Origin: Pseudomonadota bacterium
GTDB lineage: Bacteria; Pseudomonadota; Gammaproteobacteria; Burkholderiales; JAJZQI01
DNA length: 64,000 nucleotides
Direction: 5' to 3'
NCBI GenBank assembly: GCA_021851875.1
Contig: JAJZQI010000008.1
Coordinates: 48,359 to 112,358 of the forward strand
Under the pieces are notes generated by a model. The model was not told where the DNA came from. It saw only the letters and a list, made by a program, of their open reading frames with translations, and ran no database searches. Numbering within the stretch: the first letter of the stretch is position 1; every line of letters begins with the position of its first letter. Positions 1 through 15,878 of the stretch are shown one piece after another. The translations under genes and the position numbers were made by a program.

Positions 1-2
1 TG

Positions 3-359: not shown

Positions 360-369
360 GCGGGACAGG

Positions 370-1080
370 GTGATGAGCACAGACAGGCCCATGATTGATA
401 CCGCCACCCTGCAACGGGTCGGCGGACAATTGGGCACCAACCTGGCGGGTGTTTTCCAGGACGACCGCGGCCAGCGCTATTACGTAAAAACACTGGAATC
501 CCCCGCACTTGCACGCAACGAGCTGATTGCCGCCCGGCTTTATCAACTGGCGGGCGCGCCGACATTGACCTATGTCGACACAAAAGCCCCCGACCAGGTT
601 GCTACAAAGTGGCTTGAACTCGATAAAAAACGGGTTGCGCATCTGAGCGAAAGCGAACGCAAACAGGCGCAACAATGGTTCGGTGTGCACGCCTGGACAG
701 CCAATTGGGACGCTGCCGGGTACGATGGCGACAACCAGGGTGTCGTCAACGGCAAAGTCCTGACTCTGGATCTTGGCGGGGCGCTGGCGTTCCGGGCGCA
801 CGGCGATCCCAAGGGCAAGGCCTTTGGCACTCGCGTGGACGAAATCGATGTCCTGCGAAAAGACGTTGATAATCCCCACGCGGGCAGGCTTTTTGCAGGT
901 ATGACATCAGACGACGTCAAACAAGCCATCATGAAGGTGGTGCATATCCCTGACGAACAGATTCGTCAGGTGATCACTGATAACGGCGGCAGTCCGGCGC
1001 TGGCCGAGAAAATGATCGCCCGTAAAGCCGATATGGCCAGCCGCCTGACGGAAGAATCGTCTGCTGTCATTCCCCGCTGA
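370..1080 (+). CDS. Hypothetical protein, possibly a minimal kinase-like fold
   Basis: 236-aa ORF (GTG 370 or ATG 373) tightly coupled to the phosphatase ORF. Motif order is YYVK ... NELIAARLY ... HAWTANWD..DGDNQGV ... LTLDLGGA, which resembles lysine / catalytic-loop / DxG kinase spacing. This is a pattern impression only. Confidence 0.45.
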   Translation: MMSTDRPMIDTATLQRVGGQLGTNLAGVFQDDRGQRYYVKTLESPALARNELIAARLYQLAGAPTLTYVDTKAPDQVATKWLELDKKRVAHLSESERKQAQQWFGVHAWTANWDAAGYDGDNQGVVNGKVLTLDLGGALAFRAHGDPKGKAFGTRVDEIDVLRKDVDNPHAGRLFAGMTSDDVKQAIMKVVHIPDEQIRQVITDNGGSPALAEKMIARKADMASRLTEESSAVIPR

Positions 1081-1249
1081 CCACATAAATCTGTTTTAGC
1101 TATCTTTTTGGTTCGCAATTTGCTTGTCTATTAAAAGGATCTTTCAAAACCTTTTTTATACGAGTTTCTTGTCGTGTTTACTTCAATACATCCGACAATG
1201 ACTGCGCATTCACTGGCTGCATCAGCCCGGTTGAGGCGCTGCGGCAGGC

Positions 1250-1813
1250 ATGACTGTCAATCCGGGGAGACAGTGCATGCATGACGCTTTCATGTCTGCG
1301 GAGAAAGAGGAATGGGTCATCTGGAATGGCTCATACGGCATCGTCACCATGGCGGCGATCGGCCGCATCGAGGTTGGCGCTGGTGGCAAAACAGCGTGGC
1401 TTGATGCGCCCTACGACAGCGTAGGCCCCTTCAGCCTGGATGAACTGGAGACCGAGGGACGCATCATTTTTGAGGCCTGCATCGTCATGTCGCGTCAGCG
1501 ATGGCAAGACGACCAGGTCGAATTACGACGGGAAACTTTGGAAAAACGCCGGGCGGCACAGGAACGCATGAACGAAGAATTCGAACACTTCTTCGGCGGC
1601 TACGGCGGCTATTACGAAGACCGCAAACCCTTCGATGAACTCCCGCATAGAGAAGCCCTGAACTTGCCGGTCGACGGTAAACTTGAGCCATCCCAGATCA
1701 AAGCCGCTTTTCGCCGGCTCGCCCAGAAAGTGCATCCCGACGTGGGCGGCAGCAGCGAACAATTCATTCGCATTACCGAAGCCCGCAACGCGCTGCTTGA
1801 GCATATCGCCTGA
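1250..1813 (+). CDS. J-domain (DnaJ-like) protein with an unassigned N-terminal region
   Basis: The C-terminal ~55 aa form a J domain with the HPD tripeptide (IKAAFRRLAQKVHPDVGGSSEQFIRITEARNALL). The start is uncertain because ATG codons occur at 1250, 1268 and 1292. Confidence 0.7.
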   Translation: MTVNPGRQCMHDAFMSAEKEEWVIWNGSYGIVTMAAIGRIEVGAGGKTAWLDAPYDSVGPFSLDELETEGRIIFEACIVMSRQRWQDDQVELRRETLEKRRAAQERMNEEFEHFFGGYGGYYEDRKPFDELPHREALNLPVDGKLEPSQIKAAFRRLAQKVHPDVGGSSEQFIRITEARNALLEHIA

Positions 1814-1843
1814 GCACTACCTGATATTCCCTTGAAACCAGGT

Positions 1844-2305
1844 TTAAACAGCCGCGCGAATGGTTTGCGCCAGCATCGCGAGTGCTTCATCGTTCGCTCT
1901 CTGGCAATCGTGCGAAGAGACATAACCCTCGTAGCGAGTGAAGTACTTGTCGTTACTTGAGTTGATTTTTTTGAAATCGCTCGTGTTGCCGGTGCCGTGC
2001 ATGGGAAAAAGTTTGGCGTGCGCATGGTCAACCCCATAACCTTCGAAGATCATGGCCGTGCGAGCGACGCCATCGAGTGCGCGATCAATCAGAAGACCGA
2101 CTTTCTTCGCGGCGATCACCAGTTCAGCCAGTACCGAATCCGGTAGCGCAAATGCGTAGCTCGGGTGGTGTTGCTTTGGAATCACAACGCTGAATCCCGC
2201 TGTGTTGGGGAAGATGGATAGAAACGCCATGTGGGATTCATCTTCCCAGATGACATGAGCAGGGGCTCTGCGCGCAACAATTCGGCAGAAAATGCAGTCT
2301 TCCAT
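1844..2305 (-). CDS. HIT-family (histidine triad) nucleotide hydrolase/transferase
   Basis: N-terminal CIFCRI plus the histidine triad region GVDHAHAKLFP. Confidence 0.85.
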   Translation of the reverse strand: MEDCIFCRIVARRAPAHVIWEDESHMAFLSIFPNTAGFSVVIPKQHHPSYAFALPDSVLAELVIAAKKVGLLIDRALDGVARTAMIFEGYGVDHAHAKLFPMHGTGNTSDFKKINSSNDKYFTRYEGYVSSHDCQRANDEALAMLAQTIRAAV

Positions 2306-2585
2306 GGTGTTCCCCGGTTTTCCGTTTGGACATCACTTGAGCCAGAGGAGCACCGCGCTTGGGATGATAAGCACAAGAGCCACTCCATTCAATGTCAGCC
2401 GAACCCGTTTTGACGCGGGTTCCGCCGCTAAGCATGATGACGAGCAAGCCGGACATATTGCACAATACCGGCCAATTGACCCTGCCGGTACGATACCAAA
2501 GAACACTGTGCAGGCTCATCGCCAATACGATAATCATTGCCGCCACGATGTAGACAATGCGTGAAAGCCATCTTTTTTCCTGCAT
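2238..2585 (-). CDS. Possible small two-TM membrane protein
   Basis: ATG at 2583-2585 is preceded by GAAGAGG. Two hydrophobic spans are present (IVYIVAAMIIVLAMSL, VLCNMSGLLVIMLSGG). The 3' 68 nt overlap the HIT gene and that tail looks non-protein-like. Confidence 0.3.
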   Translation of the reverse strand: MQEKRWLSRIVYIVAAMIIVLAMSLHSVLWYRTGRVNWPVLCNMSGLLVIMLSGGTRVKTGSADIEWSGSCAYHPKRGAPLAQVMSKRKTGEHHGRLHFLPNCCAQSPCSCHLGR

Positions 2586-2714
2586 TGCGACCTCTTCTTG
2601 CAAGTCAACCGCCCGTTTGCCGCATCCCCATTGAGAGGCCGGTTAGAGGGGGGAGCCTGTCAACCTCGCCTTTGGGGAAATACCCAAACAAAACGTCCCC
2701 TCCTGAGTTTAGAC

Positions 2715-3293
2715 TCAGCCGTCGCGAGCCAAGCGCGCGGCGGCAGGGACGATCGCTTGGTCAGCCGTTTCCCCCAGGCACCAATGCCAGGGCTCATAGA
2801 TGTAACCGAACTTGTTTCCTTGGGGAAACGACAGCCGAAAGCCGAATTCATGCGCATGGGCACTGAGCCAGGAAAAGGCCGGTGTGAGATCGAAATCCGC
2901 TTCGAGAGGCTGTTTGTCGCCTGTGGCGATATCAACCGCCCTGCCGGTATGATGCTCGCTGCATCCGGGCGGTGCAAGATACGTGAGGATGTCGCTGAGA
3001 AGCCGGCCGGCATTTAGTTTCTGCTGGATAAGTTCGACCTGTCGATCAACGCTGCGATAGGCGGAAACGATGTGGATTTCTATGCCGTCTCCATCGGCAG
3101 CGGATTTCATTGCGTGCCACGCATCTGCTGCAGTCGGAGTGAGATAGAACGCTCGACCGCTGGCAGTCGCTTCCACCATTTGCAGCTCTTCAGCTTCTGC
3201 AAACAACGGCAGATTCCGCTCGGCCACAAGTTGATCGGACATGCCAATCCTGCGCCACACATCGCGATACCGATCAACGAGTAACTTGTCCAT
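2715..3293 (-). CDS. VanY / M15B-type D-Ala-D-Ala carboxypeptidase-like zinc peptidase
   Basis: Motifs SAYRS..RQ, SEHHTGRAVD and EPWHW appear in the canonical order for M15 peptidases. Confidence 0.8.
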   Translation of the reverse strand: MDKLLVDRYRDVWRRIGMSDQLVAERNLPLFAEAEELQMVEATASGRAFYLTPTAADAWHAMKSAADGDGIEIHIVSAYRSVDRQVELIQQKLNAGRLLSDILTYLAPPGCSEHHTGRAVDIATGDKQPLEADFDLTPAFSWLSAHAHEFGFRLSFPQGNKFGYIYEPWHWCLGETADQAIVPAAARLARDG

Positions 3294-3637
3294 GCCGACT
3301 ATCTTAAAACAAAACGCCGCTTGTTTGAATTGGATGGTCCATTGGCTATATCAGCTGGGCTGCCAATTGCACCCTATCGTTCGAAGCGAGGAAACCGCGC
3401 CCAGGGTTCCTTCAAACCAAAAACAGGGATGCCCAGCATTAAATCTACATGGTAGTTTTGAAGCTTGGCCGCCAGTGAGCGATCATTCGACAACCTGAAA
3501 TAGATATTTTGCTGCGCTCCAACGATTTGGGGCAAAAGCATGATACTCCGTGCGGCTCATCATGGTGCGTCCTCCGACAGATGAACCCGATTCACACTGG
3601 CGCGGGATACCGATAAAGTGAACCGCCTGGTTCATCG

Positions 3638-3661
3638 TTCTGACCTTCCTTCTGACCTTCC
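3638..3661. repeat. Perfect tandem duplication of a 12-mer (TTCTGACCTTCC x2)
   Basis: Read directly at 3638-3649 and 3650-3661. Confidence 0.9.
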
Positions 3662-3841
3662 TTGTATGCAGGTTCAGGCTCACGCCCCACCCAAGTTACC
3701 GTACGGCTTGATTGAACGAAAAACAGGCTGCAGCACCTATCTGACCCACAGGCTGTTAGCCTTAAGCCTTATCGATGTCTTGCAGCCCGGCTTGCTCAAC
3801 GGCTTCATTGCAGTCCATCACGCAAACGCTGTCAATATACG

Positions 3842-3893
3842 AGGCCTTACATTTTACACAAACAAAACAGGGGTGGTGTAAAATGTAAGGCCT
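3842..3893. repeat. Perfect 18-bp inverted repeat with a 16-nt loop
   Basis: AGGCCTTACATTTTACAC (3842-3859) pairs with GTGTAAAATGTAAGGCCT (3876-3893). Confidence 0.9.
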
Positions 3894-3950
3894 GACCCCG
3901 ATTGTGTGTGCGTGACCCCGATTGTGCGATTGCGATTGTGCGATTGTGTG
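3893..3950. repeat. Direct repeats: TGACCCCGATTGTG x2 followed by reiterated CGATTG(TG) units
   Basis: TGACCCCGATTGTG occurs at 3893-3906 and 3913-3926. CGATTG(TG) copies occur at 3899, 3919, 3927, 3933 and 3941. The block runs straight into the truncated transposase frame. Confidence 0.8.
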
Positions 3951-3951
3951 T

Positions 3952-4230
3952 GACAATGGTCTGGTGTTCACGAGCCATAGCTATACGCGTCTAGTGCGCA
4001 GCTACGGCCTGCAACAAGAGTTCATTACGCCGCACTGCCCACAGCAAAACGGCATGGTAGAGCGAGTGATTCGAACCCTGAAGGAGCAATGTGTACACCG
4101 TCATCGCTTCGAAACCCAGCAACATGCGACCCGGATCATCGGTGACTGGATCCTATTCTACAACACCCAGCGCCCACACCAGGCTCTGGGCATGAAAACC
4201 CCCGCTGAAGCTTATGCTTTAGCGGCCTGA
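3952..4230 (+). pseudogene. 3' fragment of a DDE (rve / integrase-core) transposase; IS remnant
   Basis: The translation DNGLVFTSHSYTRLVRSYGLQQEFITPHCPQQNGMVERVIRTLKEQ...YNTQRPHQALGMKTPAEAY is the C-terminal third of an rve-type transposase. No upstream catalytic or HTH part is present in any frame. Confidence 0.8.
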
Positions 4231-4639
4231 CCTGCGCAGAAAATGCTAGGTCATTACAGTGATTTGGGCGGCACACGTCGGGAAAGAGAAGGACAGTGTC
4301 AGTGCTGCAAACAAGATAGCGGCAAACTATCTCATGAATGTCGAATCGCCTCGTGCATTATGTTTTGTAGCGACATTATGTAATAAAAAGGCTGTTGTGA
4401 GCCGTTTGAATGTGAACTGCATGCAGGCTTGCACAACATTGAGAAGCTGGCCCATCACGGGTATGGGCGGTAGCAAGAGGGCAATAAGGGGCATCACGCC
4501 CGTGATGCGGTCTACGGACCCAGTCAGTCGACTGTATTTCCTGAAGTGAGAATCACAAAACCATCTTGGGAGTGAAGCGGAATCGCCGCAGTGGGAAAAA
4601 CGTGGCCTGCGAAAAATCTAAAAAGGGGTTTTTATACAG

Positions 4640-4709
4640 CTTGAACGTTTGAATTCAGCGGACGGCAAAAGCGCAGCTTTTGACGGTCCGCTGGAATGAT
4701 TTGTTAGCT
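4640..4709 (-). repeat. attC site a (distal end of array)
   Basis: Read on the minus strand: AGCTAAC-AAATC-ATT(C)CAG ... CTGAAT-TCAAAC-GTTCAAG. The central loop is CAAAAGCTGCGCTTTTG. Confidence 0.75.
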
Positions 4710-5116
4710 TACTCATCCTTGCGCATGGCCTCGGAAATTGGTGAGAAAAATGCAAGTGCAAGAATGGCACCGTCAGTTAAACCTGTGAGAGAACCCACTA
4801 GGTTGTCTAATGGGACAGTGATGGCCATACCGCTAAAGGGAACAGAGGCAACGCTTACTACAACAATGGCGAGTAGCAGCCAACGCCCCCAAGACAAGAA
4901 CAATAAAAGGCCAATAGAAGAGACAACTTTCCCAAGCCCAATGGATAGGTAAAAGAAGGGGTGTTGTGTCCATGAATGGGAGCCATACCCGCCCCACGCC
5001 AGGAGGTTGGACACTTCCTTGGGGAATGCTCGTGGCGAATAGGGCAAAAAGAACCAAAGCAGGTAGGAAACCAGCGAGGCCAAAACGAGTAATTGGAATA
5101 TGCGAGTGCGCGCCAT
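4709..5116 (-). CDS. Cassette ORF: small polytopic membrane protein (about 4 TM), function unknown
   Basis: ATG at 5114-5116 lies 5 nt after the attC-b core site. The stop TAA lies inside AGCTAAC of attC-a. Hydrophobic helices include IFQLLVLASLVSYLLWFF and LLLAIVVVSVASVPF. The 298-aa track ORF is an upstream over-extension through attC sites. Confidence 0.6.
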   Translation of the reverse strand: MARTRIFQLLVLASLVSYLLWFFLPYSPRAFPKEVSNLLAWGGYGSHSWTQHPFFYLSIGLGKVVSSIGLLLFLSWGRWLLLAIVVVSVASVPFSGMAITVPLDNLVGSLTGLTDGAILALAFFSPISEAMRKDE

Positions 5117-5121
5117 GTGAA

Positions 5122-5185
5122 AGCTAACGTTTAAGCTCAGGCGCGGCGCGCTTTTGCGCCGTCGCGCTGGAGCGCAGGGTTGGGC
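5122..5185 (-). repeat. attC site b
   Basis: Read on the minus strand: GCCCAAC-CCTGC-GCT(C)CAG ... CTGAGC-TTAAAC-GTTAGCT. Confidence 0.8.
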
Positions 5186-5208
5186 GTGAAGACAATCGGA
5201 GAGAGAGC

Positions 5209-5457
5209 ATGAAACTTGAACAAGTTGAGGTAAATAAAGAACAACTGAAGCTGGCAGAAGAAGCGCTACGGCGAGCAGGCGCTGAATTAAAAACTGCATG
5301 GACACTGCTGAAGCACAATGGGATGGAGCCGACGGCAAAAGAACTGGCAGACACTGTGCTTGATGTGGAAATTTCAGCGGATCAACTGCGCGAATTTTTG
5401 ACGCCCAACGTTCAAGGTAACCGGCCTGCCGCGCTTTTTGCGGCAGGTCCGGGTTGA
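5209..5457 (+). CDS. Inverted cassette ORF: 82-aa helical, charged protein, function unknown
   Basis: GGAGAG sits 5 nt upstream of the ATG. The composition is protein-like (MKLEQVEVNKEQLKLAEEALRRAGAELK...). The 3' end runs into attC-c. Confidence 0.45.
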   Translation: MKLEQVEVNKEQLKLAEEALRRAGAELKTAWTLLKHNGMEPTAKELADTVLDVEISADQLREFLTPNVQGNRPAALFAAGPG

Positions 5458-5471
5458 CCGCAGGGTTGGGC
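5403..5471 (-). repeat. attC site c
   Basis: Read on the minus strand: GCCCAAC-CCTGC-GGT(C)AACC ... GGTTACC-TTGAAC-GTTGGGC. Confidence 0.8.
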
Positions 5472-5477
5472 GTCGCG

Positions 5478-5882
5478 CTACCGAGAGAGGGCATACCGTA
5501 GGCCATAGCCACCAAGAGTGGGTACGAACACGAAGGCCGCTTTTGAGTACCAACGCGCATACCACATGGGCTCGTCGCCAAGCGAAAACCCGAATTGGAT
5601 TTCACCGGTTGCTTGAGCGGACCAGTAATCGAGTGCAGGGAAGAAAGCCCAGACTAGACCACCTATCAGAGCTGGAATTACTTGACCAAGGGACAACACG
5701 TCAAATTTCAGCAGCGCGATACAGACGGCAAGTACTCCTCCAACTCGAAGGAGAACAGAGAGGCTGGTTTCAAAATTGACGTTGATTGCGCCGGAAAACT
5801 TCCAGACTCCGAGAGCCAGCAGGCCGACGACAACTACTGCGATTACGACAAAAGCGTTTTCATCATTTGAACTGTTGCTCAC
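5478..5882 (-). CDS. Cassette ORF: small polytopic membrane protein, function unknown
   Basis: GTG at 5880-5882 is preceded by AAGGAGG with a 7-nt spacer. Hydrophobic spans include FVVIAVVVVGLLALGVW and VGGVLAVCIALL. The TTG start in the track lies inside attC-d. Confidence 0.6.
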   Translation of the reverse strand: MSNSSNDENAFVVIAVVVVGLLALGVWKFSGAINVNFETSLSVLLRVGGVLAVCIALLKFDVLSLGQVIPALIGGLVWAFFPALDYWSAQATGEIQFGFSLGDEPMWYARWYSKAAFVFVPTLGGYGLRYALSR

Positions 5883-5909
5883 TGCAATGCCTCCTTGGAG
5901 AAATGAGAT

Positions 5910-5982
5910 GCCCAACGTCAAAGCTCAGGGGCAGGACAAAAGCGCAGCTTTTGGCCTGTCCCTCTGGAGCGCCGTGTTGGGC
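5910..5982 (-). repeat. attC site d
   Basis: Read on the minus strand: GCCCAAC-ACGGC-GCT(C)CAG ... CTGAGC-TTTGAC-GTTGGGC. The loop is identical to that of site a. Confidence 0.8.
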
Positions 5983-6007
5983 GACATTGACTCACCATGT
6001 ACGCAGC

Positions 6008-6262
6008 TTATTTGATTACAGCTAACCAAGCCGCAACTGCACTTACAAGTGAGGCAACAGCAGAAAATACGGCCACCAGCCAAAGACGGTGCTCACGCAG
6101 GTGCCGTTCAGCTTCCAGTACCCGGCGTTGTAATTCATAGTCATCAGCAATTATCGGCACGTTCCCACGGCCTGGAACGACTACCGACTGGTCTGTTTCC
6201 ATGATGACACCCAATTGCTCAGCTCTTTTTCGTAGCGCATCGCCGACGAGAAGTTTTTTCAT
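6008..6262 (-). CDS. Cassette ORF: 84-aa tail-anchored (C-terminal TM) protein
   Basis: The start is 2 nt after the stop of the M48 gene. A single C-terminal TM segment is present (LWLVAVFSAVASLVSAVAAWLAVI). Confidence 0.55.
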   Translation of the reverse strand: MKKLLVGDALRKRAEQLGVIMETDQSVVVPGRGNVPIIADDYELQRRVLEAERHLREHRLWLVAVFSAVASLVSAVAAWLAVIK

Positions 6263-6264
6263 CT

Positions 6265-7500
6265 CTATTCACCAATCAATTGAACATAGACCGGGCGAAT
6301 GGAAACTGAGCTGTACCGAATTTGCTTCAACGGAATGCCGAATTCCTTCTGTTCGTAGGGCTGCATGGGAGACCATGGAATTTCATCTCTCATCAGGACC
6401 ATCTGACCATTCAGATATTCCAGGGCGACAATAGCATGCGAGATTTGCTTCCCGGAGGTGTTGACCGCAACACCGAATAAACCCCGCCCCCCACCGCTTG
6501 CGTTTGCAACCTGCAACCTTAAAAATTGGAGTCTTTGCGCAGCAAGGCGTTGCTGTTCCAGTTGTTTCGTTTGGCGCTTAAGCTGTTCCGTCTTGGCTTC
6601 CGTTGCCTCTACATAGGAATTTGCAACTGTTTCGAGCAGGGCCGCAAATCCGCCTCCTTCGCCAGCCTTGGCCGTTGAAGGTTTGCTGTACGAATAAAGG
6701 GCATTGTTCGTCAGAAGCTTTTCGTGCTCCGGGTTGATTTCGCCGGGAACAAGATATTGCTGTACCGCAGAAGCGTATTTCACCATGTTCTTGGCGCGAT
6801 CATCGTTGAGCGGGTGATCGAACATCATGTCGCCTGTATAGCTCCCCATCGCTTGGTGCATGCGGTTCCATACCCGGACACCCACTGAGGGGTCGTAACC
6901 CGCTAAAGCCAAATAAAGGGTGGAGTACTTGTCCGCTTCGGCTTCTTGGTTCGTGGTAAAGCTGGCGTCAAAGCCTTTTTCCTTTCTCAGCCCTTTGTCG
7001 GCGAGCTTGGCAATCGCCAACTTGCCTCCCTTCTCGCTAGCGTGGCGAGCGGACACATGGGCCATTTCATGAGCGAGAACAGCAGCCAGTTCGCTGTCAT
7101 CTCTGAGGCCAACTTCGCCCTGAAAAATTCCGGAGAAAACAAACATTTTTCCTCCCCCAATTGTGAAAGCGTTCCATTCTGGAGAATCCAAAACGTGGAC
7201 TTCCCAGGGTAGTTGCTTTCTATGCGTCACTGTTTTCAGGCGATTGAATACACGATTGACCCTCTCGTAGTAAGGCGTTTCTCCGTCAATTTTTATCCCT
7301 TTTTGCTTTGCTTGGGACAATATCTGTCGCTGCGCTTCTTCCGCTTGGCGGATTTCTTGCTCCTCAGAGACGAGATTAATCTGACGCTGGCCGGTTACAG
7401 GGTCACGCGACGAGACGCCATCACTGACTGCCATCATGCCTTTATCGATTGAGGCGCATCCTGTGAGCGCGACGACCAGAACAACAGAAAATAGCCGCAT
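6265..7500 (-). CDS. Cassette ORF: M48-family zinc metallopeptidase lipoprotein with an extra coiled-coil and beta-rich C-terminal region
   Basis: Lipobox LVVALTGC after MRLFSVV, HEMAH zinc motif, and downstream NQEAEADKYS...AGYDP. RBS GGAAAGGTGG lies before the ATG at 7498-7500. Confidence 0.8.
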   Translation of the reverse strand: MRLFSVVLVVALTGCASIDKGMMAVSDGVSSRDPVTGQRQINLVSEEQEIRQAEEAQRQILSQAKQKGIKIDGETPYYERVNRVFNRLKTVTHRKQLPWEVHVLDSPEWNAFTIGGGKMFVFSGIFQGEVGLRDDSELAAVLAHEMAHVSARHASEKGGKLAIAKLADKGLRKEKGFDASFTTNQEAEADKYSTLYLALAGYDPSVGVRVWNRMHQAMGSYTGDMMFDHPLNDDRAKNMVKYASAVQQYLVPGEINPEHEKLLTNNALYSYSKPSTAKAGEGGGFAALLETVANSYVEATEAKTEQLKRQTKQLEQQRLAAQRLQFLRLQVANASGGGRGLFGVAVNTSGKQISHAIVALEYLNGQMVLMRDEIPWSPMQPYEQKEFGIPLKQIRYSSVSIRPVYVQLIGE

Positions 7501-7565
7501 GTCGAACCACCTTTCCTTACGTGTCCTGCCCTCAAATATTGCTTGCATAGAACGCCTCTCTTGTC

Positions 7566-7631
7566 GCCCAACGTTTGAATTAACCGGCTGGCGCGCTTTT
7601 GCGCCAGTCCGGGTTGAATGATGGGTTGGGC
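7566..7631 (-). repeat. attC site e
   Basis: Read on the minus strand: GCCCAAC-CCATC-ATT(C)AACC ... GGTTAAT-TCAAAC-GTTGGGC. Confidence 0.8.
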
Positions 7632-7639
7632 ATAGCCGA

Positions 7640-8575
7640 CTACTCCATAAGCTGCAAAATGCCGAGAGCCTTTCCTGTTAACTCCCTTGTTGAGTTTGGC
7701 GTGATGTTGGAAACCCCAAGGCTTGCAAGGTCAGCCTTCACATCTTTCCAGAGGTAGTAGGTATCGTCAGAAGAGACTTCAAGGTAAAACCGTGTCCATT
7801 TGTCTTGGTCTTGGCGGTGGAGGATGGGAGCAGCTTGATATACATGAACGTATTTTCTGGTACCGCGTTTCTCAGTATATGCCTCGACAACCAAGTCACC
7901 CGGTTTTGCTTCTGATCGGAAGCGGGACTTGCCAGACCAACGAATTGAACGTACCTCATAGCCATCTTTTTCGACGTGCTTTTCTGCTTCCTCAAGCCCT
8001 TGTAGCTCGAATGACTCCTCGGCACTGGTGATTCGTTCGCTAAGCTGGCGCGTTGAAATAAACCACACGCGCGATTCACCAACAGTTATTTTCTTCTTGC
8101 TTTGGCGGCTAAAGCCGGAGGCGCGGACAACTGGCAGTGCTTCTATTCGCTGAAGAAACTCCTCAGTAACTTGGATGGACTCGCTCTTGACGTTCTCGAT
8201 GAATCCTTGAACCAAGCCCGCAATTTGAGAGTCGTCTGTGAATAATGAAGCTTCGCAGGTGCCGACACCTGCATTTTCTGAAAGATTCGCAGATCCAATT
8301 AACGAGTGGTTGTCGATGACGGCCACTTTAGAGTGCAATCCATCGAAGGAATAGAGTTCGGCTCCTTGATCGAAGAATGCTCGCAGAACTGAGGCCGATG
8401 TTAAGCCGCCTTTGATTGCATCATCGGATGCGTCACAGATAAGTAAATCGCCTTGGCGGAAATCAAGGTGTCGCGCTGTCACATAAGAAATGGCGGCGCG
8501 TATGCGTTTGTGGTTTGCCGATTGCTGAGACAACTCAGCCCACAGGTCATCACTCAGGAGCGTTTTCATAGTCAT
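7640..8575 (-). CDS. Cassette ORF: single-HKD phospholipase-D-family (Nuc/BfiI-like) nuclease with an unassigned ~150-aa C-terminal domain
   Basis: The HxK(x4)D(x6)GSxN motif reads LHSKVAVIDNHSLIGSANLSEN. The ORF fills the whole cassette between attC-f and attC-e. The start is ATG 8575 or 8569; the track's TTG start lies inside attC-f. Confidence 0.75.
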   Translation of the reverse strand: MTMKTLLSDDLWAELSQQSANHKRIRAAISYVTARHLDFRQGDLLICDASDDAIKGGLTSASVLRAFFDQGAELYSFDGLHSKVAVIDNHSLIGSANLSENAGVGTCEASLFTDDSQIAGLVQGFIENVKSESIQVTEEFLQRIEALPVVRASGFSRQSKKKITVGESRVWFISTRQLSERITSAEESFELQGLEEAEKHVEKDGYEVRSIRWSGKSRFRSEAKPGDLVVEAYTEKRGTRKYVHVYQAAPILHRQDQDKWTRFYLEVSSDDTYYLWKDVKADLASLGVSNITPNSTRELTGKALGILQLME

Positions 8576-8581
8576 AGAAAT

Positions 8582-8647
8582 GCCCAACGTGGAGTTGAGC
8601 GAGCGGAGCGCCGCAGGCGCGGAGTCCGCTCGAACGGAGGGTTAGAT
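8582..8647 (-). repeat. attC site f
   Basis: Read on the minus strand: ATCTAAC-CCTCC-GTT(C)GAGC ... GCTCAA-CTCCAC-GTTGGGC. Confidence 0.8.
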
Positions 8648-8942
8648 GCTGCACATTTACACAGCGAAGTTTCAATCGGCAACGGATTACCTTGACCAGT
8701 GCGGTGAGGTTGAATTCCGTGGCGGGTTTGAGCCGGAGAAGCTGATTTACGCCGACTGCTGCGGGAAACAACGGCCAGCAAAAGACTGTGTTGTGCAGTG
8801 CTACTACGATGGCCAGAGCATCTGGTGCGCACCTGAAAAGGGCTGCAAAGACCCGCAAGTGATTGCGGCGAAGAAGGCACGAGAGTTTGCGAATCGGAGT
8901 GCAGGACAAAAGGCTCGATGGGCGAAGGCATCTAACGTTTAG
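8646..8942 (+). CDS. Inverted cassette ORF: 98-aa protein with seven cysteines and a basic tail
   Basis: GGAGG (8636-8640, inside attC-f) sits 5 nt before the ATG. The seven Cys fall in CG..ADCCG..DCVVQC..WC..GC, followed by the tail KKAREFANRSAGQKARWAK. The stop lies inside attC-g. Confidence 0.5.
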   Translation: MLHIYTAKFQSATDYLDQCGEVEFRGGFEPEKLIYADCCGKQRPAKDCVVQCYYDGQSIWCAPEKGCKDPQVIAAKKAREFANRSAGQKARWAKASNV

Positions 8943-8993
8943 CTTAAGGGGCGCGCGGCTTTTCGCGCGTCCCGCTTGAAGCGCCTGTTAGGC
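8930..8993 (-). repeat. attC site g
   Basis: Read on the minus strand: GCCTAAC-AGGCG-CTT(C)AAGC ... CTTAAG-CTAAAC-GTTAGAT. Confidence 0.8.
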
Positions 8994-9008
8994 GCTATTG
9001 GAGGAAAG

Positions 9009-9200
9009 ATGAAACCGAAAGACATTATGTTTTCCGTGAACGAATACGACCGCGATGGTGATTGCACCGACAAGGGTGTATTCCTCCATTTCGGAGAAAC
9101 GAAGGTAAAGGCTGCGGACGGCATCAAGGAATTTGCCGAGATCGTGCGCCACTTCGAGGCGATGGTGGAAGAAATTGAAACCAACTATGCGGACGCCTAA
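9009..9200 (+). CDS. Inverted cassette ORF: 63-aa acidic protein, function unknown
   Basis: GGAGG at 9000-9004 sits 4 nt before the ATG. The stop TAA lies inside GCCTAAC of site h. Confidence 0.45.
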   Translation: MKPKDIMFSVNEYDRDGDCTDKGVFLHFGETKVKAADGIKEFAEIVRHFEAMVEEIETNYADA

Positions 9201-9254
9201 CGTAAATTAGGCGGCGTTGGAAAAGTGGTGTCACGCCGCCTAAATCTATTTATT
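9195..9254 (-). repeat. Degenerate attC-like site h (proximal boundary of array)
   Basis: The L'-spacer-R' half is intact (CGCCGCCTA-ATTTAC-GTTAGGC) and there is a 9-bp stem TAGGCGGCG/CGCCGCCTA. There is no extra base in L'', and the R'' position reads AATAAAT instead of RYYYAAC. Confidence 0.4.
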
Positions 9255-9368
9255 AAATTTATATCCATTAAATAACAATAACTTAATAATCGCATTTGCT
9301 TTTAACCCAACCTAAAAAAATGCGGATGAAAGTTCATGTTCTACATAAACATCCTTGCCCTTCCTGCC

Positions 9369-9397
9369 ATGATATGCGGACATTTGGATTATGACAA
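9369..9397 (-). promoter_or_regulatory. Candidate sigma70 promoter facing the cassette array
   Basis: Minus strand reads TTGTCA, a 17-nt spacer, then TATCAT, within the AT-rich gltX-array spacer. Confidence 0.3.
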
Positions 9398-9574
9398 ATG
9401 ATTGGATTTATCACTTATTTTCACTTCAACAAGAGCGTGCCAAAAGACAAAACAGAGCCCGTGGCCTTAGGGTTCTGGTCGCGAAGGGATAAAACGGACT
9501 AACAGGAATGGCGCAAAGCCGAGATACCGCATTAAACGGTATCTTGATGGCTTGCTTTGTGCCCTAACCGAAGG

Positions 9575-10969
9575 TTAGGAAGCGGACAGGGCGTTGAGCT
9601 GGCGGCGCAGGCGGGTCAGCACTTCATCTTTGCCGATGAGTGCCAGAACGGCATCGATGGAGGGGGTTTGCGGTTCGCCGGTGACCAGCACGCGCAGGGG
9701 CATGGCCACCTTGGGCAGTTTCAGGCCGTGTTCCGCGACGATGGCTTTCATCACGTCGTGAATGGCTTCGCGGGTCCAGTCGATGGCTTCAAAGCGGTCG
9801 GCCACTTGTTGCATCACCGGCAGAATGTCTGCACCGACGTGCTGTTCGATGACGGCGGGTTCGGCATCCAGCGGTCGATAGAAATACACGGCCGCATCGG
9901 CCAGTTCTTCAATGGTGTTGACGCGTTCTTTCAGCAGGTCGATGACCAGCGGCAGGGCCGGGCCATGGCTCGGGTCGCATTCGTCGCGCAGCAGAAAGGG
10001 GCGGACCAGTTCCGACAAACGGTTGCTGTCGGCCTGCTTCAGGTATTGCTGGTTGATCCAGTTGAGCTTTTCCGGGTTGAAGCGGGACGGAGAGCGGGAG
10101 ATGCCTTCCAGATTGAACCATTCGGTAAACTGGTCCATGGTAAACACTTCTTCGTCGCCTTTGGCCCAGCCCAGGCGTGCCAGGTAGTTGAGCAGTGCCT
10201 CGGGCAGGTAGCCGTCTTCTTCATACTGCATCACGCTGACCGCGCCGTGGCGCTTTGACAGCTTTTCCCCGTCGTGTCCCAGAATCATCGGTACGTGTCC
10301 GTACTTGGGCAAGGGGGCGCCGAGCGCCTTGAGGATGTTGATCTGGCGCGGTGTGTTGTTGACGTGGTCGTCGCCGCGAATCACGTGGGTGATTTGCATG
10401 TCCCAGTCGTCCACCACCACGCAGAAGTTGTAGGTAGGTGAACCGTCCGAGCGGGCAATGATCAGGTCGTCCAGCTCGCTGTTCTGCACAATGATCTGCC
10501 CTTTCACCAGGTCGTCGATGACAACGGCGCCGTCGAGCGGGTTCTTGAAGCGGACAACCGGTGACACGCCGGTCGGGGGCGTGGCGGTTGAGTCGCGCCA
10601 ACGACGGTCGTAGCGGGGTTTCTCGCCTTTGGCCATCTGCTCTTCGCGCATGGCATCGAGCTCTTCCTTGCTGGCGTAGCAGTAATAGGCTTTGCCTTCG
10701 GCCAGCAATTGGTCGATCACTTCCTTGTAGCGATCCATGCGCTTGGTCTGATAGAAAGGACCTTCGTCGTAGTCGAGCCCAAGCCACTTCATGGCATCGA
10801 GAATGACCTGGGTGTTTTCCGGGGTGGAGCGTTCCAGATCGGTGTCTTCAATACGCAGAACAAAGGTACCCTTGTGCCGGCGAGCGAATGCCCAGGAGAA
10901 CAGGGCAGTACGGGCGCCGCCCAAGTGCAGATAACCGGTGGGGCTGGGAGCGAAACGGGTGCGGACCAT
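9575..10969 (-). CDS. gltX: Glutamate--tRNA ligase
   Basis: N-terminal [18 protein letters not shown] (HIGH-type motif) and KLSKRHG (KMSKS-type motif). Confidence 0.95.
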
Positions 10970-11129
10970 GGCAGTGAGCTGAGTGAATCAAAGCCGCTAT
11001 TTTACGCAATAACTGGCAATGCCGCCATGTTGCAGCCGAGGTAAAGAGGGGGCCAGTGCTGGCAGAAGTGGTTCTAGGTGGGCTGGGAGCGATCTGCTAC
11101 CATGCGCCAGCTAGAGCGCTATATTGTTT

Positions 11130-12062
11130 ATGACAACACTGGTTAATACCGCCACACACCGGCAGGATGCATTCTGGGGAATTCTCTTTTCCCTGTTGGC
11201 CGCTATTGGTTTTTCCATCAAGTCCATTCTGGTCAAGCTGGCCTATGTATACGTGGTGGATGCAGTCACCTTGCTGACCCTGCGGATGGTCTTCTCCGTG
11301 CCGTTTTTTCTGATGATCGCCTTCTGGGCTGGGGCCCGCCAGCAGGAGCCGTTGCAAAAACGGAAGTGGCTGGTGATCGGTGCGCTCGGCTTGGGCTATT
11401 ACCTGTTCAATTATCTGGATTTTCTCGGCCTGCAGTATGTTTCCGCCGGGCTTGAGCGGCTGATCCAGTTTCTCTACCCGACTTTGACGGTGGTGCTGGC
11501 GGCCTTGCTTTATCGTCGGGCTATCTCCTCCAAGGTGATTGCCGCCATGCTGCTCAGTTACGCCGGTATCGCCATGGTGTTCATGCATGATGTGCGGGTC
11601 AGCGAGAGTGGAATTGTGCTGGGCGCGTCGCTGGTTTTTGCCAGTACGCTGTTCTACGCGATCTATCTGGTGGGGGCGGGGCACTCGATTGCACGCATGG
11701 GAACGGTGAGATTCACGGCTTATGCGATGCTGATCGCCAGCACCATCAGCGTGAGTCAGTTTGCCCTGACACACCCGCTGACAGCGCTGGTGCAACCCGC
11801 GCCGGTGTATCAGCTGGCCTTTATGATGGCGATCTTTTCCACCGTTTTGCCGGTATTCCTGTTAACGGCCGGTATCCGCCGGATCGGTTCCGGCGAGGCT
11901 TCTCTGATCGGCTCGATCGGCCCGGTGTTTACCATTTACCTGGCGCATGTGTTCCTTGATGAGCATGTTTCTGCCTTGCAAATCGGCGGGTCGCTTCTTG
12001 TATTGGTCGGTGTGGTTGCGGTCAGTCTGAGCAGCCGCAGCGATGTTCGGCCGATCAGCTGA
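11130..12062 (+). CDS. EamA/DMT-family transporter
   Basis: About ten hydrophobic helices in two EamA-like halves. I prefer ATG 11130 over the track's TTG 11124. Confidence 0.8.
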   Translation: MTTLVNTATHRQDAFWGILFSLLAAIGFSIKSILVKLAYVYVVDAVTLLTLRMVFSVPFFLMIAFWAGARQQEPLQKRKWLVIGALGLGYYLFNYLDFLGLQYVSAGLERLIQFLYPTLTVVLAALLYRRAISSKVIAAMLLSYAGIAMVFMHDVRVSESGIVLGASLVFASTLFYAIYLVGAGHSIARMGTVRFTAYAMLIASTISVSQFALTHPLTALVQPAPVYQLAFMMAIFSTVLPVFLLTAGIRRIGSGEASLIGSIGPVFTIYLAHVFLDEHVSALQIGGSLLVLVGVVAVSLSSRSDVRPIS

Positions 12063-12071
12063 TCTGCCCGA

Positions 12072-12590
12072 TTATCTCGCCTCCGGCGGACCATGACGTT
12101 TCTGTTCTGCCAATGGCAAGGTCAGCGTTTCCTTCACTTCTTCCATCACGATATAGCTTCTTGATTCCTGCGCGCCGGGCAGCGTGAGCAGAATGTCGCC
12201 CAGCAAAGTCCGGTAATCCGACATTTGCGGAATGCGCGCCTTGACCAGGTAATCAAAGTCACCCGAAACCAGATGACATTCCAGCACGCTGGGCAGTTTG
12301 ATGATTGCCCGTTTGAACTTCTCGAAAATGGTCCCTGACTTGGCGGACAGCTTGATCTCGACAAACACCAGCAGGTTGAGGTCCAGCGCATTGGGGTCGA
12401 TACGGGCGTAGTAGCCCAGAATGACGCCCTCTTTTTCCAGGCGCTTTATCCGCTCCCCGCAGGGCGTGACTGACAGACCCACTTTTTCGGCCAGATCGGT
12501 GATGGAAATACGGGCGTCTGTTTGCAGGATGGAAAGAATTTTACGGTCGATATTGTCCAGTTCGCGGACGGCATGGGTGCGGATTCTCAT
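12072..12590 (-). CDS. Lrp/AsnC-family transcriptional regulator, divergent from dadA
   Basis: HTH LDNIDRKILSILQTDARISITDLAEKVGLSVTPCGERIKRLE plus an AsnC-type C-terminal domain. Confidence 0.9.
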   Translation of the reverse strand: MRIRTHAVRELDNIDRKILSILQTDARISITDLAEKVGLSVTPCGERIKRLEKEGVILGYYARIDPNALDLNLLVFVEIKLSAKSGTIFEKFKRAIIKLPSVLECHLVSGDFDYLVKARIPQMSDYRTLLGDILLTLPGAQESRSYIVMEEVKETLTLPLAEQKRHGPPEAR

Positions 12591-12790
12591 AGGATTTTAC
12601 TGTGTAGTTAAAATTGCTGGAATTTTTATGATTACATAATGAATATATATTGTCAGTCAAAAAATATGCAATTTTTTACTGGATAATCTGGAAATATAGA
12701 AAATTCACCTGGCGGGTGAGGCGTACACTCTGGCCGTAATAGGGCTGTAAAAGGCCATTTATCGAGATGGGCTTCTTCTGGGGGTGTGGG

Positions 12791-14101
12791 ATGCGAGTTG
12801 TTGTTCTGGGTAGCGGGGTGGTGGGGGTGACCAGTGCGTATTACCTGGCGAAGGCGGGATTTTCCGTGACGGTGCTGGATCGCCAAAGCGGGCCGGGTAT
12901 GGAAACGAGTTTTGCCAATGCGGGGCAGGTATCGCCCGGCTATTCGGCGCCCTGGGCCGCTCCGGGTATTCCCTTGAAGGCGGTCAAGTGGCTGTTCCAG
13001 CGCCATGCCCCGCTGTCGATCCGACCGGACGGCTCCTTGTGGCAGTGGCAGTGGCTGGGAATGATGTTGCGCAACTGCACGGAGGACCGCTATGCCGTTA
13101 ACAAATCGCGCATGGTGCGGCTGGCGGAATACAGCCGCGACTGTTTGCGCGAGCTGCGGGCGGAGACCGGTATTCAATATGAGCAGCGTACGCAGGGAAC
13201 GCTGCAGGTCTTTCGTACGCAACAGCAGCTGGATGCGGCTGGAAAAGACATTGCCGTGCTGGCCGAGTGCGGAGTGCCTTATGAGGTGCTGGACCGCGAT
13301 GGCTGCGCGAGCGCGGAACCGGCGTTGGGCCTGGTAAAAGAAAAACTGGTCGGCGGCTTGCGCCTGCCGGGCGACGAGACGGGCGACTGCCAGCTCTTTA
13401 CCACGCGTTTGGTAGAAGAGGCGCGTAAGCTGGGTGTCGAATTTCGCTACAACTTTCCGATCGAGCGCCTGCTGACTGCCAACGGCAAGGTGACGGGCGT
13501 TGAAGGCGGCGGGGAACGGATCGAGGCCGATCAGTTTGTGGTGTCTCTGGGCAGCTATTCGCGCGATTTGCTGCAATCGCTCGGCATGAAGATCCCAGTC
13601 TATCCGGTCAAAGGTTATTCCCTCACCGTTCCGATCACCAATCCGGCTGCGGCACCGGTTTCGACCATCATGGACGAAACGTACAAGATCGCCATCACGC
13701 GTTTTGACGACCGTATCCGTTTGGGCGGCATGGCCGAACTGGCGGGCTTTGATTTGCAGCTGAATCCGAAACGGCGGGAAACGCTGGAAATGGTGGCCGG
13801 CGACCTGTTCCCGCAGGGCGGGGATATTCCGTCGGCCACCTTCTGGACCGGTCTGCGGCCGATGACGCCGGATGGCACGCCGATCATCGGCGGCACCCCT
13901 TACGAAAACCTGTGGCTGAATACCGGCCACGGCACCCTGGGGTGGACCATGTCGTGCGGTTCCGCTCGCGTGTTGGCGGATCTCGTTGCCCGCCGCCGCC
14001 CGGCGATTGAAGCCCGGGACCTGGGGCCCTGTCGTTATGAGCCCGGCGTGCCCGATTGCAATCCGGCCGCGTCGATGGCGATGTCTGGCGCGACAAAATA
14101 A
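12791..14101 (+). CDS. dadA: D-amino-acid dehydrogenase
   Basis: [31 protein letters not shown] (FAD GxGxxG) and synteny with alr. Confidence 0.9.
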
Positions 14102-14125
14102 TTAAGAATAGAAGGCATATGCAGT

Positions 14126-15211
14126 ATGAGTCGACCTACAACCGCGCGCGTCCGCCTGGATGCGCTGCGCCATAATTATCTTCAGGCAAAAGCGTTGCAT
14201 GGCGAACGGGCGCTGGCCGTGGTCAAGGCAAACGCCTACGGTCATGGAGCGGTGCAGTGTGCCAAAGCCCTGGAAACCGTCGCGGATGGTTTTGCCGTTG
14301 CCGCAATCGAAGAGGCGCTGGCCCTCAGAACTGCCGGCATCAACGGACCGATTTTGCTGCTGGAAGGTTTTTTTGAAGCGAGTGAGTTGGCGGAGATTGT
14401 TGATCAGGATTTGTGGACGGTCGTGCATCATCCCTGGCAGCTTGAGGCTTTGCTTGCCAGCAAGCTTGATAAGCCCATTACCGTATGGCTCAAGATGGAC
14501 AGCGGCATGCACCGGGTCGGCTTTGATCCGGCCATGTTTCGACAGGCTTATGAGCAACTCAGCGCCAGCCCCAATGTGCGTCAAATTGTCCTGATGAGCC
14601 ACTTTGCCCGGGCCGATGAACCGAATGCGGCGCACCCCAAGCAGCAAATGGAAATTTTCCGTGCAACGACCGAGGGTATCGAGGCTCCGGTCAGTCTGTC
14701 CAATTCGGCGGGCATTCTCGGTTGGCCGTCGACGCATGTGAACTGGGGCCGACCGGGGATCATGCTCTATGGCGTGAATCCTTTCGATGGCCTGGAAGCC
14801 AGTCAAGAGGTGACCGGCGACTTGCGCCCGGTGATGCAGCTCGAGTCGGCTGTTATTGCCGTGCGCTCGATTGCGCCTGGAGAGCCCGTCGGCTACGGCG
14901 GAGCTTTCGTCGCCGACCGGCCGACACGAGTGGGCGTGGTGGCGTGCGGTTATGCCGATGGTTATCCACGCATTGCGCCAACCGGGACACCGGTTGCAGT
15001 GGATGGACAATTGACGCGTTTGATCGGCCGGGTGTCGATGGACATGCTGACCGTCGATTTGACCGATTTGCCCGCAGCCGGGCTGGGCAGCCGTGTCGAA
15101 TTGTGGGGTGACACCGTGCCTGTCAGCCGGGTGGCCGGCCTGGCCGGCACGATCGCCTATGAAATTTTATGCAATGTGAAGCGTGCCCGTTTCCATTATT
15201 CCGATAATTGA
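14126..15211 (+). CDS. alr: Alanine racemase
   Basis: PLP-lysine motif AVVKANAYGHG. The length is typical. Confidence 0.9.
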   Translation: MSRPTTARVRLDALRHNYLQAKALHGERALAVVKANAYGHGAVQCAKALETVADGFAVAAIEEALALRTAGINGPILLLEGFFEASELAEIVDQDLWTVVHHPWQLEALLASKLDKPITVWLKMDSGMHRVGFDPAMFRQAYEQLSASPNVRQIVLMSHFARADEPNAAHPKQQMEIFRATTEGIEAPVSLSNSAGILGWPSTHVNWGRPGIMLYGVNPFDGLEASQEVTGDLRPVMQLESAVIAVRSIAPGEPVGYGGAFVADRPTRVGVVACGYADGYPRIAPTGTPVAVDGQLTRLIGRVSMDMLTVDLTDLPAAGLGSRVELWGDTVPVSRVAGLAGTIAYEILCNVKRARFHYSDN

Positions 15212-15783: not shown

Positions 15784-15878
15784 CGTTTTTCCTTTTGCCT
15801 GAACGACGACGATGATCGTCTGGCTGGAATTGCAATCACCTATAGTGGATCAACTGAACTGAACGGAGTGGTACTCTC

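Follow-up and report, generated by a model that had tools for sequence, protein, structure and literature searches.

A window of 64,000 nucleotides, the whole stretch of DNA that was analyzed, was taken from contig JAJZQI010000008.1 (positions 48,359 to 112,358) of a bacterium assigned to the Burkholderiales. It carries on the minus strand an integron gene cassette (7572–8587) composed of one open reading frame (ORF) and its own attC site, as delimited from the sequence and from a block of homology shared with a copy in Nitrosomonas. The ORF (7640–8575, minus strand, stop codon included) encodes a protein of 311 amino acids in which a phospholipase D (PLD) nuclease domain is combined with a PUA-like domain. 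The upstream attC site (8582–8647, minus; R'' TCTAAC, R' GTTGGGC) defines the 5' boundary of the cassette through its R' box (G8588|T8587), and the cassette's own attC (7566–7631, minus; R'' GCCCAAC, R' GTTGGGC) sets the 3' boundary at G7572. Both sites align with five others of the window, with which they have AAC...GTT cores and an internal palindrome in common. On the bottom strand, the attC sites fold into hairpins considerably better than shuffled sequences do (z between -3.0 and -5.0), with values of -3.0 for the upstream site and -5.0 for the cassette's own site. A covariance model, narrow in that it was built from the seven related sites of the window, scored the upstream attC, a training member, with 45.8 bits and the cassette's own attC with 81.9 bits. 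R''-L''...L'-R' boxes, an imperfect hairpin and a co-oriented ORF, as expected for an integron cassette, are all present. A preliminary description of this DNA, made from the letters alone, had already placed the cassette at 7572–8587 with a single minus-strand ORF co-oriented with the attC sites; the ORF was found again in the sequence, alignment and hairpin folding corroborated both attC sites, and the limits fall exactly on the G|TT-to-G|TT crossover points.

The ORF was originally listed from an upstream TTG (7640–8587, minus). An ATG is visible at 8575 and yields the 311-residue protein. It sits 6 nt past the GTTGGGC R' box, and the distance from the 5' end of the cassette to the ATG is only 11 nt. 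Homologues begin with MxxK or MK. The Nitrosomonas copy has ATA as its third codon, and therefore the first ATG is needed there.

Residues 1–148 (8132–8575, minus) constitute a single-HKD PLD-family nuclease domain, as indicated by Pfam and Foldseek. The Pfam model PLDc_2 matched with 32 bits against a gathering score of 27. RE_NgoFVII, which describes an N-terminal PLD domain, remained under its cut-off (21.1 bits, E 2e-4, cut-off 23.8), and PLDc was also just below its threshold. NCBIfam and PADLOC returned only weak DrmC, NucT and ClsB matches, which were confined to the HKD motif and far under the curated cut-offs. The catalytic motif LHSKVAVIDNHSLIGSANLSEN (residues 80–101, L80 to N101; 8273–8338, minus) has the form HxK(x4)D(x5)GSxN with the spacing H81-x-K83-x4-D88-x5-G94-S95-x-N97 and aligns to the motif of NucT. 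The HKD motif noticed in the preliminary description is therefore present, but the interval between Asp and Gly, given there as six residues, is five. Just downstream lies E108 (8252–8254, minus), which is invariant in 64 homologues together with H81, K83, G94, S95, N97 and S99.

A full-length AlphaFold2 model based on the 64 homologues reached a mean predicted local distance difference test (pLDDT) score of 90.2. Two confidently modelled domains occur in one chain, joined by a basic linker of low confidence (residues 149–166; 8078–8131, minus); pLDDT drops to about 59 at residues 151–160, and the region is gappy and variable in length in the alignment of homologues. In a Foldseek search against the PDB, the PLD domain was closest to NucT (6ehi; E 4e-7, template modeling (TM) score TMt 0.68), TM values for NucT and Nuc being 0.66–0.68. 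SauUSI (7clg) was the second-best match, and Nuc (1byr; TMt 0.68), Zucchini, PLD3/4 and NgoAVII-R were also found. Pfam and fold matches thus support assignment of the N-terminal half to the Nuc-type single-HKD PLD nucleases and not to the lipid enzymes. Nuc and BfiI have one HKD motif per chain and form homodimers with one composite, metal-independent active site. As the cassette protein likewise has one HKD motif per chain, it would by analogy be a homodimer with a composite, metal-independent site.

The second domain (residues 167–311; 7643–8077, minus) is predicted to be a beta-barrel with helices of PUA-like/YTH-like fold and is presumed to sense nucleic acid or a modified base. For residues 163–311 no match was obtained in Pfam, NCBIfam, PADLOC or PHROGs, and Pfam at E <= 5 did not detect EVE (PF01878), YTH (PF04146) or ASCH (PF04266) in 33 diverse C-terminal fragments. 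The earlier statement that the last 150 or so residues resemble nothing nameable thus held at the sequence level, across these libraries and the PDB sequences. Because Foldseek with the whole protein was dominated by the PLD domain, the C-terminal domain was remodelled alone. The resulting model (pLDDT 94.7, predicted TM score 0.88) contains eight strands and five helices, in agreement with the beta-rich character proposed for it before. Only two PDB matches were significant, both to the N-terminal domain of Thermococcus gammatolerans McrB (6p0f and 6p0g; E 1.6e-4 and 4.6e-4, probability 1.0, TMq 0.55 and 0.48). They were followed by the ASCH protein 3iuw (probability 0.95), the YTH domain of YTHDC2 (2yu6, probability 0.89) and Lon N-terminal domains, all of which are PUA-like barrels. 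A fold search of BFVD recurrently returned ASCH ("activating signal cointegrator") and DUF3850 proteins, and entries named "putative RNA-binding protein" were among the hits. Structure prediction followed by Foldseek, one of the checks that the preliminary description had proposed for this domain, gave PUA-like matches with the McrB sensor in first place.

PUA-superfamily matches were found at the level of fold, and none at the level of sequence or profile. Since a profile signal with YTH and ASCH is missing, the PUA-like assignment is a fold-level one of moderate strength. The guess that the domain reads DNA or modified bases is accordingly upheld by the top fold match to the McrB sensor and then by ASCH and YTH, but not by profile comparisons. 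W171, E186 and R212 are invariant in this domain, and the conserved blocks GKSRFR, PGD, HRQD, WTRFY and NSTREL are rich in Arg, Lys and aromatic residues, a pattern of sequence conservation that would fit a nucleic-acid-binding pocket. PUA-like sensors elsewhere read 5-methylcytosine (5mC), 5-hydroxymethylcytosine (5hmC) or hypermodified bases. The McrB N-terminal domain of T. gammatolerans has been described as a YTH fold directed at N6-methyladenine (6mA) DNA within a type IV McrBC system (PMC7680126), and its affinity for RNA is reported to be low (PMC7544203).

A search with the full protein yielded 111 clusters (90% identity) at E <= 1e-37. These proteins have about 309–311 residues, are almost all metagenomic and are unnamed; the family currently bears the labels "hypothetical" or "phospholipase D-like". 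When a profile of the C-terminal domain was run against 1.84 billion representatives, 511 clusters (50% identity) were collected at E <= 1e-3, 327 of them at E <= 1e-10. In nearly all of the 150 best of the 511 the domain occupies about residues 163–311 of a protein of some 310 residues, and among these 150 none was fused to another effector. Longer members gave PLDc_2 only in Pfam, and an indexed search with Pfam annotations recovered PLD fusions, fragments and one probable PIN chimera. As only PLD fusions and fragments were found, both domains form one evolutionary unit. The sole non-PLD partner seen belongs to P0106 (249 residues, four contigs), in which PIN_3 (PF13470) is joined to about 60% of the C-terminal domain; P0106 is either a genuine fusion or a chimera of assembly or gene calling. 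An apparent stand-alone C-terminal-domain protein (P0278) was rejected, as it is one half of a pseudogene at locus L038 (3473–4417), where a family member split by an in-frame stop (...YMTKK*SDEID...) had been called as two proteins.

Species-representative genomes with a copy comprise Thiolinea, Verrucomicrobiota, Planctomycetota, Acidobacteriota, Desulfobacterota, Massilia, Bacteroidota and Actinomycetota, so that the distribution is patchy over at least eight phyla. Distant relatives (25–29% identity; C-terminal hhalign E 1.4e-3) reside on 59 Rhodococcus megaplasmids amid insertion sequence (IS) elements and a MazF toxin. A search of a phage collection returned no family member. Compared with a 79%-identical copy, the ratio of nonsynonymous to synonymous substitutions (dN/dS) was about 0.07, at saturated synonymous sites, and the values for the two domains were 0.075 and 0.045. 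Both domains are under strong purifying selection. With a Pfam match above its cut-off, 111 homologues at E <= 1e-37 and a dN/dS of about 0.07, the observation is far beyond chance.

The gene was also encountered as a cassette elsewhere. A 74%-identical homologue occurs in three Nitrosomonas contigs (L029, L030 and L031) from metagenome-assembled genomes (MAGs), alone between mgtE and an FMN-reductase gene. The attC that follows it (L029, 8174–8244) was recognized by the covariance model with 36.4 bits (E 1e-7) and lies outside the training set. DNA homology between the window and Nitrosomonas sets in at the R' core just ahead of the ATG and stops with ACGTT in the downstream attC, where the sequences begin to diverge. 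The Nitrosomonas copy is a single cassette outside any array, and its upstream R' box has decayed (GCTGGTC), which points to integration at a secondary site. In a deltaproteobacterial MAG (L018), a separate array (6932–12685) comprises at least eight attC-like sites, one behind each of its short co-oriented ORFs, and a 34%-identical homologue occupies one of its cassettes; no integrase was found within 6 kb of it. Taken together, the Nitrosomonas copy and the L018 cassette show movement of the unit at G|TT crossover points, and the family is cassette-borne in at least three independent places. Integron cassettes have been reported as stores of defence genes (10.1101/2024.07.02.601686; 10.1101/2024.07.02.601719), and in this the literature agrees with what the preliminary description said of phage-defence genes in such cassettes.

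The genes beside the homologues were inspected as well. Neither the cassette nor the scanned neighbours in the window nor about 15 independent contexts of homologues contained a methyltransferase, so that its absence, remarked upon earlier for the cassette, extends to these contexts. A conserved partner gene was likewise not found across the contexts. At two loci (L032, 2755–3549; L009, 5156–6004), an unannotated gene for a protein of about 270 residues extends 4 nt into the beginning of the PLD gene; these genes could be different local partners. Together with one of similar size in L004 they were considered as a conserved partner and rejected, as they are mutually unrelated and had no PADLOC match. 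A 71%-identical copy (L033) lies between PDC-S19 with a Type III restriction enzyme and an McrB-like/McrC pair. This region of L033 (1625–10409) is a compact defence island, and the N-terminal 170 residues of its McrB-like protein match the defence protein PD-T4-1. For a 72%-identical copy there is a 4-nt overlap with the stop of an Mrr_cat gene, and a 64%-identical copy follows HEPN_AbiU2 near RmuC and adjoins a Prim-Pol element. Other copies are situated between PIN toxin-antitoxin pairs, among toxin-antitoxin genes and IS66, or near an AAA_15/21 ATPase. These neighbourhoods fit a stand-alone defence gene; they are anecdotal and do not amount to a statistical enrichment.

The cassette protein is best read as a candidate PLD restriction endonuclease that is modification-dependent (type IV-like), is encoded as a single chain, stands alone and would act against phages or other incoming DNA; we assign to this reading a probability of roughly 0.55. 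It is supported by the fold-level identities of both domains, the catalytic residues, purifying selection, cassette mobility, the lack of a partner and of a methyltransferase, and the defence neighbourhoods. A constitutive non-specific nuclease without immunity would be intolerable, yet the gene is conserved and solitary; either its target is absent from the host or the enzyme is off until infection. Modification dependence is favored because of the analogue of the sensor, the restriction enzymes in the neighbourhood and the precedents for PLD-plus-sensor proteins.

According to this proposal, two chains would pair via their single-HKD PLD domains and build a composite site from H81, K83, N97 and E108 of each, as in Nuc and BfiI. 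The site would cut phosphodiester bonds without metal through a covalent phospho-histidine intermediate. The flexibly linked PUA-like (YTH-like) barrel of each chain would bind nucleic acid and probably flip a modified base into a pocket of conserved aromatic and basic residues. In this way the nuclease would be directed only to DNA carrying a modification that is absent from the host, and because it would be aimed at nothing else, no methyltransferase, antitoxin or partner would be needed. An anti-phage phenotype would be expected for the gene, which travels as an integron cassette. With regard to specificity, the closest analogue prefers 6mA and other PUA-like sensors prefer 5mC, 5hmC or hypermodified bases, and the cassette protein may read any of these.

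Several observations weigh against a modification-dependent restriction endonuclease. PADLOC assigned no system and gave only DrmC-like matches (E >= 2e-5) over about 50 residues of the HKD motif; the idea of a defence cassette put forward earlier is thus backed by restriction, defence and toxin-antitoxin neighbours in other genomes but not by assignment to a known system. D88 of the HKD motif varies in distant members of the 64-homologue alignment. The C-terminal domain was never seen with another effector and therefore lacks the domain shuffling typical of the sensors of modification-dependent restriction endonucleases. Its PUA-like match is moderate and at the fold level only (TM 0.48–0.55, root mean square deviation about 6 Å), and phmmer and profile hmmsearch against all PDB sequences provided no link of the C-terminal domain to a solved structure. 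PUA-like folds such as ASCH and Lon-N bind RNA or proteins too, and the fold is no proof of modified-DNA reading. Comparison of the C-terminal profile by hhalign with the YTH domain of human YTHDC1 and with Escherichia coli YqfB (ASCH) gave probabilities below 1%; for the McrB-like neighbour in L033, the N-terminal module also remained below 1%. These hhalign failures give no support for the fold match, yet they do not refute it. Finally, no expression signal is evident inside the cassette, and the sole sigma-70-like site on the right strand, upstream of the array at 9397–9369, is no more than chance expectation.

The foremost alternative follows from the second option named above. In an infection-triggered (abortive) nuclease, the PLD dimer would be inactive until the C-terminal domain sensed a phage cue other than a modified base, for example single-stranded DNA, a protein or an intermediate of replication, and indiscriminate DNA degradation would then kill or arrest the cell. 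A gene that stands alone without an immunity partner is compatible with such a mode of action, and so are the abortive-type neighbours HEPN_AbiU2 and the PIN toxins. Lon-N, a PUA-like domain that binds proteins, is among the C-terminal fold matches, and the domain has not been shuffled onto other effectors as typical modification sensors have. The best structural analogue nevertheless senses DNA modification in a type IV restriction enzyme, genes for restriction enzymes (Type III, McrBC, Mrr) are the closest associates in the neighbourhoods, and early, non-abortive action is known from the END nucleases, which are related PLD-sensor proteins (PMC12191111). On balance we consider an abortive nuclease rather unlikely.

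Still less probable is an RNA-directed enzyme, in which the PUA-like domain would read modified or structured RNA and the PLD domain would cut RNA, as a toxin or in defence at the RNA level. The ASCH, YTH and "putative RNA-binding protein" entries among the C-terminal fold matches point in this direction, as does Zucchini, a PLD nuclease that cleaves single-stranded RNA, among those of the N-terminal domain, and RNA has been predicted as the target of some type IV-related systems (PMC11090510). Against this stand the reported low RNA affinity of the top match, the McrB N-terminal domain (PMC7544203), and the fact that the nearest PLD folds, NucT, Nuc and SauUSI, belong to DNA nucleases. A constitutive RNase without an antitoxin would moreover be expected to be toxic, yet the gene is always solitary.

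The possibility that the gene encodes an orphan sequence-specific type IIS enzyme like BfiI or NgoAVII, or that it is a silent relic without function, appears very remote. The former idea draws on the sub-threshold Pfam match to RE_NgoFVII and on NgoAVII-R among the fold matches, but no BfiI, EcoRII-N or B3 fold was matched by the C-terminal domain, and a cognate methyltransferase was found nowhere, which would be lethal for a type II enzyme. A relic would be in keeping with a cassette without its own promoter and with the one homologue that an in-frame stop has turned into a pseudogene; across the family both domains are under strong purifying selection, which argues against it. A housekeeping phospholipid enzyme with an accessory domain, of the cardiolipin or phosphatidylserine synthase type, is effectively refuted: one JGI record names a fragment "phosphatidylserine/.../cardiolipin synthase-like enzyme", but the NCBIfam ClsB match reached 14.6 bits against a cut-off of 281, there is a single HKD motif instead of two, the fold is nearest to nucleases, and the gene resides in cassettes and defence islands with a patchy distribution. 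One of the two outcomes named in the preliminary description as speaking against its own proposal, a housekeeping lipid function, thus did not materialize.

The proposed modification-dependent PLD restriction endonuclease was compared with characterized systems. END nucleases provide single-gene, early, non-abortive defence against hypermodified phages, as shown experimentally, and the same study lists PLD-EVE/PUA fusions as untested relatives (PMC12191111). END-PaCF1 and its homologues resemble the cassette protein in an N-terminal BfiI/SauUSI-like PLD domain (HxK), a C-terminal sensor, the absence of a methyltransferase and a location in defence islands. Their C-terminal domain is an inactivated EndoIII/OGG1-like helical domain with a helix-hairpin-helix (HhH), whereas the cassette protein has a PUA/YTH-like beta-barrel. 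Phage-plating evidence exists for END; the cassette family is described here from sequence and models. Membership in END was rejected, as the C-terminal domain had no HhH-glycosylase fold match.

Bell, Wolf & Koonin (2020, PMC7641849) predicted a type IV restriction function for EVE-PLDc fusions. These fusions resemble the cassette protein in combining a PLD nuclease with a reader of the PUA superfamily and in being predicted to depend on modification. The domain of the cassette protein is undetected by EVE, YTH and ASCH models (E <= 5, 33 members), and the order here is nuclease N-terminal and reader C-terminal. The C-terminal domain is at best a separate branch of the PUA superfamily that is unrecognizable by sequence. 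PLD-wH fusions are a further precedent for PLD-plus-sensor proteins (PMC11037411). In T. gammatolerans McrB the sensor sits on an AAA+ GTPase motor that works with McrC, a nuclease on another chain, whereas in the cassette protein it is fused directly to the PLD domain without a motor, and McrB has no detectable sequence similarity to the C-terminal domain. SauUSI (7clg) shares the N-terminal PLD nuclease and the lack of a methyltransferase and restricts 5mC/5hmC DNA. It is ATP-dependent and, with about 950 residues, contains a helicase/ATPase module and a DUF3427 recognition domain, in contrast to the 311 residues of the motor-less cassette protein.

Nuc, NucT and BfiI agree with the cassette protein in one HKD motif per chain and in the equivalent catalytic His, Lys, Asn and Glu residues. 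Unlike it, Nuc and NucT are secreted or periplasmic non-specific nucleases without a specificity domain, and BfiI has a B3-like pseudobarrel and a cognate methyltransferase, neither of which was found here. Assignment to the BfiI/NgoAVII type IIS enzymes was rejected on the grounds that a B3-like domain and a methyltransferase are missing and RE_NgoFVII stayed below its cut-off. DrmC of DISARM was also rejected, NCBIfam DISARM_DrmC_I having scored 27.2 bits against a cut-off of 133 over the HKD motif only, with no DISARM genes nearby. As a compact single-gene defence candidate, the cassette resembles the phage-defence integron cassettes described recently (Darracq 2025; Kieffer 2025; Getz 2025). 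It differs from them in that the array belongs to an environmental, non-Vibrio genome, with closest relatives in Nitrosomonas MAGs, and has no integrase. A PLD cassette has not been reported in the accessible literature on integron defence cassettes.

What is new is a large uncharacterized family with a presumed sensor unseen by sequence models, circulating as a cassette in environmental bacteria. No concept is overturned, as both the architecture and the role of cassettes in defence had been anticipated in the literature. If the modification-dependent restriction function is confirmed, a family of at least 511 clusters that is missed by PADLOC (2023; PADLOC-DB v2) would join the anti-phage catalogue, the established and experimentally supported class of N-terminal PLD nucleases with a variable C-terminal sensor (END, SauUSI) would gain a PUA/YTH-like one, and a function of the restriction type would be added to the defence genes stored in integrons, here in the integrase-less array of an environmental bacterium. 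Small modification-dependent endonucleases resistant to ethylenediaminetetraacetic acid are also useful reagents for mapping DNA modifications. More tentatively, the C-terminal domain could be a new branch of PUA-like readers, invisible to sequence models, with a specificity outside that of the characterized enzymes, for example 6mA in duplex DNA, as with the McrB domain, or a hypermodified base; the odds appear to be against it. In that case, the 35-kDa protein would be a minimal, motor-less and metal-independent type IV restriction enzyme, and for environmental bacteria other than Vibrio it would be the first demonstration that a type IV restriction function circulates on an integron cassette.

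The cassette is part of an array of seven co-oriented attC sites (4642–8998, minus, up to about 9311) of the CALIN type, i.e. without an integrase. Over the window, the covariance model recovered exactly these seven sites (4642–8998) in a single orientation. The array begins just downstream of gltX (9575–10969), and gltX, EamA, alanine racemase and arginase genes are its neighbours. A tblastn search of the 64-kb window with IntI1, which served only as a probe, found nothing better than E = 6, and an adjacent intI with attI, as in a complete integron, is not present. Since an IntI-like match is absent from the window and gltX abuts the array, the locus is an integrase-less attC cluster. The G+C content of the array is about 50%, compared with 58–60% in the flanking chromosome. 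An Rfam scan of positions 1–16000 of the window gave no match. A generic attC finder (R''/R' plus hairpin) missed both known positives, and its negatives at other loci are therefore uninformative.

In situ, the PLD gene is probably only weakly or poorly expressed and would represent a stored defence cassette without a promoter of its own. The distance of 6 nt between the R' box of the attC and the ATG leaves no space for a promoter in the cassette. A promoter-like TTGTCA-17-TATCAT (9369–9397, minus) is directed into the array. The spacer between gltX and the first cassette is AT-rich, and a GGCGGCG...CGCCGCC hairpin lies there beside a GTTAGGC box (9195–9260, minus); hairpin and box could be a degenerate first attC, a relic of attI or the gltX terminator.

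In three of the seven cassettes the ORF runs antisense to the attC sites, and a good Shine-Dalgarno sequence precedes each of the three. The two cassettes upstream of the PLD cassette are among those with ORFs on the opposite strand. The antisense ORFs encode a Cys-rich protein of 98 residues (8646–8942, plus), a protein of about 63 residues (about 9009–9200, plus) and a helical protein of 82 residues (5209–5457, plus); the two that were scanned with Pfam gave no match. Because the 98-residue ORF begins inside R'' of the attC just upstream of the PLD cassette, its transcript would have to start in the PLD gene or cross it in antisense. The next cassette (5983–7565, minus) contains two ORFs, which encode an M48-family zinc peptidase of 427 residues with a lipoprotein-like N terminus (6265–7548, minus; Pfam E 6e-20) and an abutting protein of 84 residues with a hydrophobic C terminus (6008–6262, minus). 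This M48 protease cassette could be a two-gene module and is unusual for its size. Next to the distal end of the array lies a truncated C-terminal fragment of an IS3-family (rve-type) transposase (...DNGLVFTSHSYTRLV...YNTQRPHQALGMKTP...; within 3919–4230, plus), which is preceded by four tandem copies of the 8-bp repeat CGATTGTG (3919–3948).

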